A stretch of 64,000 bases of DNA from a virus (lineage: Duplodnaviria > Caudoviricetes), in IMG/VR virus record IMGVR_UViG_3300036770_008730, one strand, 5' to 3'. The translations under genes were made by a program, and so were the position numbers. Shown here in pieces: positions 5,536 to 21,952 of this stretch. The notes beneath the pieces were generated by a model. It searched no databases. It saw nothing but the letters and a program-made list of their open reading frames with translations, and was not told where the DNA came from. Every line of letters starts with the position of its first letter. Position 1 is the first letter of the stretch.

Positions 5536-6408
5536 TTAAAGACAAGATAAATATCTTTCACCTCTATCACATAGTATAGTTATGATATTTCCATCCATAT
5601 CTGGATACTTTTCTAAAAGTCTTTCTGATGCTAATATATTGGCTCCTGAACTAATTCCAACAAATAGACCTTGTTCTTTAGCAAGTCTTTTAGCTCTCGC
5701 TTTAGCTTCTTCAGTTGAAATAATTATAATATCATCAACTTCTTTTAAATCTACTAAAAACTTGGATCCATCTCCAATACCTTGTATTCCGTGAAGACCA
5801 GGTAATCCACCAGACATAACAGGTGATTCAGCTGGTTCAACCGCCACTGTCTTCATATTATGGTTATACCACTTTAAAACACGAGAAGTACCCATAAGAG
5901 TACCTCCTGTTCCTGTTCCATCAACAAATGCAGCAATTCTGTTTGTATGTTGGTGTAAAATCTCAACAGCTGTTCCTTTTTCATGCGCTTCAATATTTAA
6001 AGGATTACTAAATTGTTTAGGATTAAAATATCCATTTTCCTCAGCTAATTTGTCTCTAAGTGCAATAGCCTCATCAAATTTACCATCTTCTACTTCAATT
6101 AGTTCAGCACCATATAATCTTAACATTTGTTTACGTTCTTCAGACATATTTCTTGGCATAACTATAATACATTTATATCCTCTTTCTGCTGCTAAGAAAG
6201 CAAAGGCAATTCCAGAGTTTCCAGATGTCGCTTCAATAATTGTATCACCTTTTCCAATAAGATTATTCTTCTCGGCGTTATTAATTATATAGGAAGCCAT
6301 TCTGTCTTTTATTGATCCGCTTGGATTTTGTCCTTCGAACTTTGCAAATATTCTATCTGATATTTTTATTAACGGGGTGTTGCCTACTTGATTGGAGAGT
6401 TGTTTCAT
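5536..6408 (-). CDS. cysK: Cysteine synthase (PLP-dependent, CysK/CysM family)
   Basis: KFEGQNPSGSIKDR (PLP lysine), EATSGNSG, GTGTGGT, QGIG, GISSGAN, DRGERYLS. Confidence 0.93.
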   Translation of the reverse strand: MKQLSNQVGNTPLIKISDRIFAKFEGQNPSGSIKDRMASYIINNAEKNNLIGKGDTIIEATSGNSGIAFAFLAAERGYKCIIVMPRNMSEERKQMLRLYGAELIEVEDGKFDEAIALRDKLAEENGYFNPKQFSNPLNIEAHEKGTAVEILHQHTNRIAAFVDGTGTGGTLMGTSRVLKWYNHNMKTVAVEPAESPVMSGGLPGLHGIQGIGDGSKFLVDLKEVDDIIIISTEEAKARAKRLAKEQGLFVGISSGANILASERLLEKYPDMDGNIITILCDRGERYLSCL

Positions 6409-6492: not shown

Positions 6493-7071
6493 ATGGACAT
6501 TTGGTTTATTTCAGATACGCATTATGGGCACACAAACATTACCGGGTCTGATATTTCTCGTTGGAAAAGTGGATATAGAAACTTCAAAACACTTCATCAA
6601 ATGAATAAGGTTTTGGTAGATGGTATAAACAAATATGTCAAAGAAGATGATGTGCTTTATCATTTAGGTGATTGGAGTTTTGGAGGAGTTGATAACATAA
6701 AATTATTTAGAGATAGTTTGATATGTCAAAATATACACTTGATTAGAGGAAATCATGATGATAACATAGAAGGGTCTCAGATTGATTTATTTTCATCTGT
6801 TCAAGATGTACTAACTTTGAAAATTGGTAAAATGACTATTTTCCTTTCTCACTATTCACATCGTGTGTGGTTAGGTAGTCATAAAGGTGTTATTCATTTA
6901 TATGGACACAGTCATGGTTCAATTCCGGATATTGGAAAGTCAATGGATGTTGGTGTGGATGTTGCTTATAAAATGTTTGGTGAATATCGACCCTTTAATA
7001 TATCAGATATAAATAGAATTATGGAAAAGAGAGAAATACATAAAATTGATAGTCATGTTAGAGAAGAATAA
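6493..7071 (+). CDS. Calcineurin-like metallophosphoesterase
   Basis: SDTHYGH, HLGD, GNHD, HGHSH motifs. Confidence 0.88.
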   Translation: MDIWFISDTHYGHTNITGSDISRWKSGYRNFKTLHQMNKVLVDGINKYVKEDDVLYHLGDWSFGGVDNIKLFRDSLICQNIHLIRGNHDDNIEGSQIDLFSSVQDVLTLKIGKMTIFLSHYSHRVWLGSHKGVIHLYGHSHGSIPDIGKSMDVGVDVAYKMFGEYRPFNISDINRIMEKREIHKIDSHVREE

Positions 7072-7228
7072 TATAGTAAGTAAATTAGGTAAATCTAATT
7101 TGAAAATGTTAATAAATTCAATTTATGGTTCAATTCCAGGTGCTGATAATTTATGGCATAATATGTATAAAAAATATACTAGAACTGAATTTAGAAAACA
7201 AAAAATTAAAAACATTTTAAATGATTGA
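7055..7228 (+). CDS. Small protein with PolB motif-B-like segment and RxxKIxxIL tail
   Basis: KMLINSIYG followed by RKQKIKNIL; ORF overlaps both neighbours. Confidence 0.55.
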   Translation: MLEKNNIVSKLGKSNLKMLINSIYGSIPGADNLWHNMYKKYTRTEFRKQKIKNILND

Positions 7229-7844
7229 TATTTTTGATAAAAATAATATAGACCTAAGTAATATCATTTGTCATAGTGGTGGTGCTGTTGGTGCTGATAC
7301 TTATTGGGAAGAGATTGGTGAAAAGTTTGGAGTAAAGACAAGTGCTTATTCTTATAAGACTAAATATCACACTTCTGTAAATAAAGTTGAGATTAGTAAT
7401 GAAGATTTTATTGAAGGTATAGAGCAAGTTAATAAGGCAAATCTTAATCTTAAACGATATGGTATTCATAAGTTTATTAATTTACTTGCCCGAAATTGGG
7501 CACAGGTAAAATACTCAGAACAGATATTTGCTATTGGAACATTTTTAAAACCCGGTGAAAAAGATTCAAAGGGCTATGTTAATAAAGGAACTATTGATGT
7601 TGTTTCTGGTGGGACTGGATATGCTGTAATGATGGGTATTAATAATGAAAAAGAAGTATTTCTTTTTGACCAGGTTAGAGATTCTTGGTATAGATGGTCT
7701 TATACTTCAAATTCTTTTGTGGTATTGAAAAATTGTCCAAAAATTACTAAACAGAATTTTGCTGGAATTGGCACTAGAGAAATAAAACAAAATGGTATAG
7801 AACAGATAGAAAAGGTTTACGGACTTACTTTTAACAATGAGTGA
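7221..7844 (+). CDS. SLOG/YspA-like Rossmannoid protein
   Basis: HSGGAVGAD, GGTGYAV and FAGIGTR motifs. Confidence 0.55.
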   Translation: MIDIFDKNNIDLSNIICHSGGAVGADTYWEEIGEKFGVKTSAYSYKTKYHTSVNKVEISNEDFIEGIEQVNKANLNLKRYGIHKFINLLARNWAQVKYSEQIFAIGTFLKPGEKDSKGYVNKGTIDVVSGGTGYAVMMGINNEKEVFLFDQVRDSWYRWSYTSNSFVVLKNCPKITKQNFAGIGTREIKQNGIEQIEKVYGLTFNNE

Positions 7845-8118
7845 TTATTTTATAAAATATAAAAATTTAGCAATTTATGCTGAGGAGTCTCGCAAATTAG
7901 TGAGAAGAAATTACAAATGTCAAGTAGTTGCCACAGAGGCTGATACTTTATTTGATAAATATAAAACTAAGAATCCATATGCTCAATGTCGTAAATTAAC
8001 TATTGAAAGTGTTGAGAATTTGCTTCCGGTAAATCTAAAATTAGGCTTACTTGAACTGCCTGAAGTTCAAGCTTTAATCAGAGAAGATAAAATAAATAAG
8101 ATTATAGAAAATGATTAA
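7837..8118 (+). CDS. Hypothetical protein (RxxKIxxII tail)
   Basis: Overlapping operon ORF ending REDKINKII. Confidence 0.55.
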   Translation: MSDYFIKYKNLAIYAEESRKLVRRNYKCQVVATEADTLFDKYKTKNPYAQCRKLTIESVENLLPVNLKLGLLELPEVQALIREDKINKIIEND

Positions 8119-8590
8119 TATAAAAAAATGGTTTAGTTATGACCCCTTTGAGTGGAAAGTAAAAGTTTCAGCAGGTGTTATAATTATTTTAAGGAATGAA
8201 AAGATACTACTTTGTCATCCAACTGGTCATCCATGGAATGATAGTTATTCTTTTCCAAAGGGTGGAGTTGATGATGGTGAGTCGAATATTGATGCAGCAA
8301 TAAGAGAATTAAAAGAGGAGACTTCTTTAGTTATTGATGAGTCTCAAATTGATAATATAAATAGACCAATAATCGTAAATTATAGAAATAAAAAAGGTCG
8401 TAAATATAAAAAGGTTATTTTATATACGGTGAGAATTTCTTCGATATCAGAGGTCGGACTTGACAGAGATATTATAGAAAGAGAAAGATTACAACTTGAT
8501 GAAGTTGATTGGTGTGGATTTCTAACTAAACAAGATGCTCATCCAAAGATATTTCATCGATTTGCTCACTTACTTGATTTAATAAAATGA
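8111..8590 (+). CDS. Nudix hydrolase
   Basis: Nudix box GGVDDGESNIDAAIRELKEETS. Confidence 0.9.
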   Translation: MINIKKWFSYDPFEWKVKVSAGVIIILRNEKILLCHPTGHPWNDSYSFPKGGVDDGESNIDAAIRELKEETSLVIDESQIDNINRPIIVNYRNKKGRKYKKVILYTVRISSISEVGLDRDIIERERLQLDEVDWCGFLTKQDAHPKIFHRFAHLLDLIK

Positions 8591-21736: not shown

Positions 21737-21952
21737 GTGAAGTCTGAAGATGATTTGATTTATGACTTAATTTTCTCAGAAAAGTCAACCTTCAATATAG
21801 ATATCTCCGAATATATTGTGGATATCTATGAGTATGAAGATTTTGTTGACCATTTAAGAAATATTCTAAAGAAGTCAAAAGTTAAAATATTAAAAAGTTC
21901 GGTTATTGTTGATAGTAAAACAGTTGTTTGGGATTTAAAAGTAAAAAAATAA
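21737..21952 (+). CDS. Hypothetical protein
   Basis: ORF behind an AATATATA box, coupled to the next gene. Confidence 0.55.
   Translation: MKSEDDLIYDLIFSEKSTFNIDISEYIVDIYEYEDFVDHLRNILKKSKVKILKSSVIVDSKTVVWDLKVKK

Follow-up and report, generated by a model that had tools for sequence, protein, structure and literature searches.

What does a phage gain from a 57-residue protein that carries motif B of a family-B DNA polymerase (PolB) and ends in a peptide found on many other small proteins? We examined this question for an open reading frame in a 64-kb stretch of phage DNA (hereafter the window, taken at its full length; G+C ~29%). The first-pass annotation had reported an exact KxxxNSxYG in the ORF at 7055-7228 and an RKQKIKNIL ending; the motif was correct in coordinates and sequence (K17-MLI-N21-S22-I-Y24-G25), and the ending is indeed present at 7193-7219, two residues (ND) before the C-terminus. 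The locus comprises the following features.

6493..7071, + strand: calcineurin-like metallophosphoesterase, the upstream operon gene (Pfam PF12850 and PF00149; phrog_547, E = 8e-42)
7046, + strand: alternative TTG start of the mini-protein gene, three codons upstream, which would give a 60-aa form
7055..7228, + strand: mini-protein gene P0001 (57 aa), translation MLEKNNIVSKLGKSNLKMLINSIYGSIPGADNLWHNMYKKYTRTEFRKQKIKNILND followed by a stop; evidence from ORF translation, homologues, dN/dS, synteny and an AF2 model
7103..7141, + strand: PolB motif-B-like segment K17-MLI-N21-S22-I-Y24-G25-SIP-G29, KMLINSIYGSIPG, at the C-terminal end of helix 1 and the turn
7103-7129, + strand: nonamer KMLINSIYG (K17-G25), an exact KxxxNSxYG
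7193..7219, + strand: C-terminal handle RKQKIKNIL, followed by ND and the stop codon; a tail common to other ORFs
7221..7844, + strand: DprA/SLOG-like gene, 207 aa, downstream in the operon (phrog_768, E = 2e-9)
7837..8118, + strand: small gene, 93 aa, ending in the same handle (REDKINKII-END; ORF list and tail pattern)

The genes of this operon are tightly coupled. The end of the phosphoesterase gene overlaps the start of the mini-protein gene by 17 nt, the ATG of the DprA/SLOG-like gene overlaps the last mini-protein codons (AAT GAT TGA / ATG ATT GAT), a Nudix gene follows the 93-aa gene, and there are no terminator-like sites between positions 6300 and 10600. A frameshift fusion of the mini-protein gene with the upstream phosphoesterase was considered and rejected, because the overlap varies among orthologues (17, 14, 8 and 1 nt). 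The only DNA-level relatives of the window in the phage collection were the uncultured phages LR745206.1 (634,780 bp) and LR756502.1 (642,428 bp), the largest of the freshwater/subsurface megaphages, whose sources are a sub-surface sample from Japan and a French lake (PMC9723777).

A word-indexed search recovered six homologues of the mini-protein (54-57 aa), and an exhaustive HMM/profile search of 1.84 billion representatives added eight more (42-64 aa), giving a family alignment of 15 members of 42-64 aa. The gene order CysK (minus strand), phosphoesterase, mini-protein, DprA/SLOG-like protein, 94-aa protein and Nudix is kept in four metagenome contigs, and LR745206 shows the same order with one extra tail-bearing ORF of 110 aa between the mini-protein gene and the DprA/SLOG-like gene. 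The phosphoesterase is syntenic in all related contigs. Among orthologues of the mini-protein gene, pairwise dN/dS lies between 0.12 and 0.52, and the codon for Ser22, TCA in most family members, is AGC in the LR745206 homologue. Judged by its evolution across the family, ORF 7055-7228 is a real, selected gene. No homologue of the family was found in LR756502, where other, unrelated genes stand between the phosphoesterase and SLOG-like genes; the mini-protein gene is therefore dispensable.

In addition, we searched more widely for relatives. An IMG/VR pattern search with the family alignment gave 225 pattern matches and no relative among them, and tblastn of P0001 against 50,697 phage records yielded nothing better than E ≥ 4. 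One of the six weak tblastn matches is the annotated DNA polymerase gene of a ~166-kb phage, and another tblastn match, in LR756501, was set aside as spurious since it sits within a 314-aa ORF. Pfam and PHROG scans of P0001 and its homologues returned no polymerase match and nothing else meaningful.

We then asked how far the likeness to motif B is a property of the family. That homologues might lose the NSxYG residues had been named beforehand as the outcome that would refute the idea, and N, S, Y and G were found to be invariant in all 15 members. The invariant columns of the first half of the alignment are N21, S22, Y24, G25, G29 and D31, and position 17 is Lys or, in 5 of the 15 members, Arg, so that the invariant columns together with K/R17 cover every fixed position of the extended motif K-x3-NS-x-YG-x2-G. 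The hypergeometric chance of finding at least five of six motif columns among six invariant columns of 30 is 2.4e-4. Taken alone, the five fixed residues K...NS.YG are weak evidence and do not rise above chance: the expectation is 0.037 copies of the pattern in 19,750 aa of window ORFs and ~0.4 in a 640-kb genome, and a six-frame translation of the window contains one.

When the family profile was searched against 177,635 distinct PDB sequences (E ≤ 10), 19 of the 21 matches were family-B polymerases, aligned on motif B. The best were T4 gp43 (residues 544-568, E = 0.012), RB69 gp43 (556-578, E = 0.072) and an archaeal PolB (E = 0.58), and enlarging the profile from 8 to 15 sequences had improved the PDB E-values from 0.028 and 2.6. 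The alignment with RB69 extends through N-x-K-x-L-I-N-S-x-Y-G-x-x-G-N-x-W-x-x-x-Y, and the likeness of the family to PolB thus reaches the flanks of the motif, with N-x-K upstream and G-N-x-W...Y downstream. These matches of the head to an internal block of a large core protein (E = 0.012-0.07 against solved PolBs) are borderline by E-value in any single search, and it is by specificity that the link between head and PolB appears strong. The relatives' own PolB gave no BLAST or HMM match to the mini-protein head.

The specificity of the nonamer was assessed in an IMG/VR sample of 116 loci containing 83 occurrences of KI[LF]INSxYG. The great majority (78 of 83) belonged to open frames of 300 aa or longer, DxxSLYP being present in frame in 41 of them, and the other five were in a single 225-aa frame or in frames truncated where the locus stops; no complete small ORF contained any of the 83 occurrences in these 116 loci. 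The strings KILINSIYG (15 times) and KILINSVYG (12 times), which P0012, P0013 and P0016 of the family carry unchanged, were always found in polymerase-type frames, and the exact KMLINSIYG coding pattern had no match in IMG/VR. The flanks were compared using 64 distinct PolB windows, in which real flanks scored 4.7 bits higher against the family profile than random flanks taken from the same proteins, although the PolBs are themselves interrelated and helicity was not matched in the random flanks. The difference was positive in 58 of the 64 windows, and the best window scored 31.9 bits. Because of the conservation within the family, the specificity of the nonamer and the similarity of the flanks, the motif is lifted above chance, and we consider it likely that the head is derived from, or kept to resemble, PolB motif B.

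The mini-protein lacks the remainder of a polymerase. Motifs A (DxxSLYPS) and C (YGDTDS), with their metal-binding Asp pair, are absent from the 57-aa sequence, there is no D..SLY-type site near the gene in the window, and none of the eight family members tested matched Pfam PF00136 DNA_pol_B (gathering score 23 bits), even at E = 10. Having neither motif A nor motif C, no Pfam match and only 57 residues, the mini-protein is, on sequence grounds, not a polymerase and carries no catalytic apparatus. In RB69 gp43, K560 is the proton donor, and K560 and N564 contact the triphosphate (PMC3564110). Since Lys17 is replaced by Arg in a third of the family and its RB69 equivalent is the proton donor, polymerase chemistry is not what is conserved; it is charge and shape that are kept.

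Nor is the mini-protein a fragment of the resident polymerase, judged by the two relatives. Both have a divided PolB, with finger helix N at the end of the N part (513 aa) and helix P at the start of the C part (474 aa), and the C part retains its own motif B, KLVLNGSYGAFAT; in LR745206 the mini-protein gene lies more than 30 kb from either half. Against the mini-protein family profile the KLVLNGSYGAFAT segment scored 6.5-6.7 bits, compared to 13.7-31.9 bits for canonical viral PolBs (13.7 for T4 gp43; sampled median 20.6), a comparison that uses the PolB of the relatives as the resident polymerase, the window phage's own PolB lying outside the window. This gap (~6.6 bits for the relatives' PolB) contradicts a copy of the phage's own polymerase, and by profile score the mini-protein is much closer to canonical phage polymerases than to the clade's own enzyme.

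Using the family alignment, AF2 predicted a helical hairpin with helices at residues 2-24 and 30-56 and a mean pLDDT of 72. Helix 1 is predicted to stop at Y24-G25, as helix P does at Y567-G568 of RB69 gp43 (PMC3564110). On a helical wheel, V8, G12, L16, L19 and I23 form a hydrophobic face, and K17, N21, Y24 and G25 are placed at 125-165 degrees from it, from which we infer that these four residues are exposed and face away from the hairpin core. A Foldseek search of the model against the PDB gave nothing below E = 6, and there were no ESM Atlas look-alikes of the mini-protein at 0.9 or above.

At the other end of the protein, the tail is conserved in 14 of the 15 family members, the exception being the truncated P0012, and K48, K50, I51 and K52 are at least 90% conserved in the family alignment. 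We described the tail by the pattern [RK]xx[KR][IL]xx[ILV][ILVFW] within the last 12 residues, which is conservative and misses looser tails. This pattern ends 4-5 ORFs of the window and, with crude ORF calls, 108 of 981 and 93 of 1004 ORFs of the two relatives (9-11%), most of them encoding small proteins. The tail codons differ synonymously among orthologues (AGA/AGG, AAA/AAG, ATT/ATA), which argues for selection on the peptide and not on a DNA signal, and for the same reason we discarded the idea that the tail sequence serves the next gene as a DNA-level signal. A role as the clamp-binding peptide of the polymerase was likewise rejected, since the PolB C part of the relatives ends in ...SVVMDIFGGFK, without the tail. 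To our knowledge the RKxKIxxIL tail has no known reader, and its sequence is unrelated to known tags.

Core-protein fragments joined to this shared helix had been noted before, and the relatives bear this out: their tail-bearing mini-proteins carry PolB motif A (twice) and fragments of gp23, prohead protease and topoisomerase II. We compared small ORFs (≤130 aa, n = 865) with large ones (≥250 aa, n = 456) across the two relatives and the window, and obtained 29 matches at E ≤ 1e-3, compared to none for reversed controls. Fourteen of these matches are to internal segments of the large protein, and six of the fourteen are tail-bearing (odds ratio 4.2, p = 0.014). According to Pfam and PHROG, the targets of the tail-bearing matches are the gp23 capsid protein, the prohead protease, Topo II-A, the PolB N part and a ClpB-like ATPase.

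The matches to PolB motif A come from two separate genes. A 79-aa tail-bearing ORF of LR745206 reads INMDFASLYPSTQRMHF where motif A of that phage's own PolB reads DFASLYPTTQRQFF (DFASLYPSTQR and DFASLYPTTQR, respectively). A 49-aa ORF of LR756502, which is not orthologous to it, reads ...MDYTSLYSNIILSHNIMPE-RVRRIAKIKRIL... and matched motif A of Pfam DNA_pol_B in an unbiased six-frame scan (E = 1.3e-4, profile positions 58-91); this protein (P0008) is a singleton in a 5.8-billion-protein database. PolB motif A has thus been copied twice, independently, in tail-bearing mini-proteins of the two relatives. In addition, a 75-aa ORF of LR745206 matched Pfam Gp23 (E = 2.7e-4) and holds the string KMVNNSYYG. 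As far as the alignments indicate, polymerase motifs have been set before the handle at least three separate times, and the recurrence of motifs A and B on the handle increases the prior probability that the resemblance of the motif-B head to PolB is genuine. The same comparisons place the mini-protein as one member of a class in which a core-protein fragment is joined to a common handle.

What had first been read from this locus is partly retained in the explanation that we favour: the observation itself, the reality of the gene, the conserved motif, the PolB-specific likeness and the shared tail all held up. We propose that this gene of a ~0.6-Mb freshwater/subsurface megaphage encodes a two-helix hairpin in which helix 1 would end in a copy of PolB motif B, the end of finger helix P (K-x3-N-S-x-Y-G-x2/3-G), and that this segment either derives from a canonical T4-type PolB or has been kept to look like one. 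The polymerase-specific polar residues would lie on the helix face that points away from the hairpin core, and helix 2 would end in the clade-wide handle R-K/D-x-K-I-x-x-I-L. Acting as a protein-fragment mimic, the mini-protein could use its exposed motif-B surface to engage whatever normally contacts or recognises the finger of a canonical polymerase, candidate targets being a host factor that senses or attacks phage polymerases, the replisome of a rival phage, or the other half of a split polymerase, and the handle may dock it to a partner common to the whole class. As a whole, a fragment mimic with a class handle appears the best explanation of the sequence comparisons, and we hold it with moderate confidence. 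A bolder version, which we regard as improbable, would make the class a library of bait-and-handle mini-proteins, in which the most invariant core blocks (PolB motifs A and B, capsid, protease, topoisomerase) are displayed on the handle and coupled through it to one shared phage machine. Their purpose would be to capture, inactivate or destroy immune sensors of the host, or factors of rival phages, that recognise these blocks; the motif-B mini-protein would then be bait for a factor that recognises canonical polymerases and that the phage's own diverged KLVLNGSYGAFAT escapes.

Several of these observations could be read differently. The protein might be an unrelated helical hairpin in which N-S-x-Y-G...G-x-D supplies a C-cap, a glycine turn and an N-cap, the likeness to PolB being structural convergence and only the tail being of importance. 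Where a helix ends in a turn, a hairpin would be expected to keep Gly, Asn, Ser and Asp for structure alone, and the invariant residues do all fall within the 11 residues (21-31) around the predicted turn. This reading also draws on the expectation of ~0.4 five-residue patterns per genome of such size, on the lack of a Pfam PolB match together with the borderline profile E-values, and on a second exact KxxxNSxYG, in the LR745206 mini-protein at 255010-255237, which is not kept in the LR756502 counterpart and indicates that such strings can arise by chance in AT-rich proteomes. We nevertheless consider convergence rather unlikely: the whole nonamer, including its hydrophobic positions, matches PolB strings that in the IMG/VR sample occur only in polymerases, the likeness continues upstream (N-x-K) and downstream (G-N-x-W...Y), 19 of the 21 PDB matches are PolBs, and unmistakable fragments of PolB motif A and gp23 are present in other mini-proteins that bear this tail. 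A functionless leftover of a polymerase gene, produced by recombination or a homing-endonuclease event, would account for a PolB fragment as well, given that mobile elements are known to insert into gene 43 of T4-related phages (PMC2988022) and that homing endonuclease genes are found in these megaphages. Decay of this kind is scarcely credible for a gene under purifying selection, with an invariant motif across 15 diverged members, and neither the constant size, the conserved tail nor the translational coupling within the operon fits it.

Two further readings accept the motif and assign it a different task. The mini-protein could regulate the phage's own split polymerase, as a helix-P surrogate that pairs with helix N and holds or blocks the N part until the C part arrives, the motif-A mini-proteins doing the converse on the C part. 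The split in PolB falls exactly between the two finger helices N and P, the split gp43 halves of T4-related phages reassemble into active enzyme (PMC2988022), and motifs A and B would both lie at the interface of the halves, as inferred from PolB architecture (PMC3564110). However, LR756502 has the same split PolB but no family member, the mini-protein is far closer to canonical PolBs than to the resident one, and the capsid, protease and topoisomerase fragments with the same tail are left unexplained, which makes this role decidedly improbable. Alternatively, the protein could belong to a counter-defence operon as a small nucleotide-binding or sponge protein, whose K/N/S/Y surface would bind a nucleotide or signal within an oligomer. 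Its operon neighbours (phosphoesterase, SLOG-like, Nudix) all have nucleotide-handling folds, the polar motif residues are predicted to be exposed, and K560 and N564 of RB69 gp43 touch the triphosphate (PMC3564110). A complete nucleotide site needs much more than one helix face, Arg freely takes the place of K17, Foldseek found no fold match to any known sponge, and the operon linkage is loose, with unrelated genes at this position in LR756502, so that we regard a sponge as very improbable.

Returning to the fragment mimic, we compared the mini-protein with known systems. Its closest point of reference is motif B of T4/RB69 gp43 (Region III, helix P; motif roles from PMC3564110), with which it shares the nonamer including the hydrophobic positions, the following Gly and N-x-W...Y, and the position of the motif at the C-terminal end of a long helix. 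Unlike gp43, it has 57 residues and not ~900, it is without exonuclease domain, palm, motif A, motif C and thumb, the catalytic Lys is Arg in the five members mentioned above, and beyond the motif there is a second helix whose tail is unrelated. The split gp43 (43A/43B) of Aeromonas phages 25 and 44RR, described by Petrov et al. 2010 as cited in PMC2988022, has a parallel in LR745206 and LR756502, where PolB is likewise made as two chains; neither of these is the mini-protein, and the C half retains a motif B of its own.

Other parallels concern proteins that carry one piece of a larger one. Eukaryotic microProteins and dominant-negative fragments, such as the Id proteins and plant LITTLE ZIPPER, are small, are related to one segment of a large multi-domain protein and lack its activity; they are expected to act by competitive binding, and the known ones copy dimerisation domains and not a catalytic-site helix. 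The phage mini-protein is likewise a single segment without the activity of its parent, but differs in copying a catalytic-site helix and in its handle, and we know of no microProteins with a common handle that is shared with ~100 other proteins. The Gol region of T4 gp23 and the Lit protease offer a precedent in which a host system recognises a conserved phage core protein through one short linear stretch of it. Gol acts inside the full capsid protein and triggers defence, whereas the mini-protein is a separate, selected phage gene. The handle has its own analogues in ssrA/SspB-type tails and F-box-like handles, which serve as address tags or constant-handle adaptors, and the RKxKIxxIL tail is similarly one short C-terminal peptide on many unrelated small proteins. 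Searches of the literature on phage decoys, microproteins and small proteins of huge phages found nothing comparable, and the class of core-fragment and handle mini-proteins appears to have no counterpart for phages in the literature searched.

If the proposal is correct, phages produce very small proteins in which the most invariant parts of the virus's own capsid and essential enzymes are reproduced and mounted on a common handle. The invariant pieces would then have readers that have yet to be recognised, such as host sensors, rival phages or assembly partners, and each mini-protein could be used as bait for them. For annotation, the finding shows that many of the ~40% of megaphage ORFs of ≤120 aa represent genuine genes that are under selection and follow a modular logic, and for polymerase biology the mini-protein provides a natural stand-alone helix-P peptide.

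With regard to expression of the operon, a sigma-70 promoter scan of the window was uninformative (27 sites, compared to 28.4 in shuffles), and no exact Bacteroidota-type site (TTTG-N17-21-TAnnTTTG) was found just upstream of the mini-protein operon. No RNA runs with the locus were listed among the sequencing runs searched; the runs that contain its DNA come from several freshwater and subsurface studies.

In both relatives, the megaphages LR745206.1 (634,780 bp) and LR756502.1 (642,428 bp), the family-B DNA polymerase (PolB) is encoded by two genes approximately 100 kb apart, in the same arrangement, with the split falling between finger helices N and P. The C part carries an unusual motif B, KLVLNGSYGAFAT, and in LR756502 its Pfam match extends 5' of the ORF across one TAG and one TAA. 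In LR745206.1 the two genes lie at the following positions of the extracted loci:

L005:385-1926, + strand, split-PolB gene
L004:442-1866, - strand, split-PolB gene

PolB motif A also occurs in small ORFs that end in the handle, the C-terminal tail shared by many small ORFs of these phages:

LR756502.1 523495-523644 (L009:1486-1635), + strand, 49-aa ORF, MAKTVKNIIKMDYTSLYSNIILSHNIMPERVRRIAKIKRILTEIENLNR
LR745206.1 83154-83393 (L019:3154-3393), + strand, 79-aa tail-bearing ORF that includes DFASLYPSTQRMHF

The 49-aa ORF fuses motif A to the handle; it matches positions 58-91 of the Pfam DNA_pol_B profile at E = 1.3e-4 and is a singleton, with no other member found in a database of 5.8 billion proteins. 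The 160-aa ORF 5' of it also ends in the tail (RRNDKLSKILGD). In the 79-aa ORF, DFASLYPSTQRMHF is a near copy of motif A in the same phage's PolB, DFASLYPTTQRQFF; the two motif-A ORFs are non-orthologous.

Internal blocks of the prohead protease, the gp23 capsid protein and topoisomerase II subunit A are likewise copied, by five tail-bearing mini-ORFs:

LR745206.1 460435-460686, - strand
LR745206.1 255010-255237, - strand
LR745206.1 572527-572802, - strand
LR756502.1 277261-277446, + strand
LR756502.1 501868-502047, - strand

In the protease copy the 51 aligned aa are 57% identical (E = 5e-15), and the gp23 copies are C-terminal blocks.

What lies between the phosphoesterase and DprA/SLOG-like genes differs by genome (window 6493-8590; L001/L002 1900-3700): only the 57-aa motif-B mini-protein gene in the window, this gene plus a tail-bearing 110-aa ORF in LR745206, and three unrelated ORFs (108, 302 and 86 aa) in LR756502.

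A further window ORF resembles the PolB N part:

21737-21952, + strand, 71-aa ORF immediately 5' of a 1719-aa gene

It has 63% identity to ORFs at the same position in both relatives and lacks the handle. A comparison with all large ORFs gave E = 0.002 for its 69-aa match (35%) to residues 82-148 of the N part, the region surrounding the first exonuclease motif. T4 gp43 (PDB 9e5y) contains a second NSxYG-like string in its exonuclease domain, LLNSMYGSV (residues 148-156), which inflated the whole-sequence gp43 score in the first PDB search.

Finally, the relatives encode proteins with SprB repeats or with a CHU_C or CHU_C-like type IX secretion signal domain, which fits a Bacteroidota host:

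LR756502.1 514378-519390, + strand, 1670-aa protein containing SprB repeats as well as a CHU_C domain
LR756502.1 597508-597858, - strand, small ORF with a CHU_C-like domain only
LR745206.1 498837-499217, + strand, small ORF with a CHU_C-like domain only
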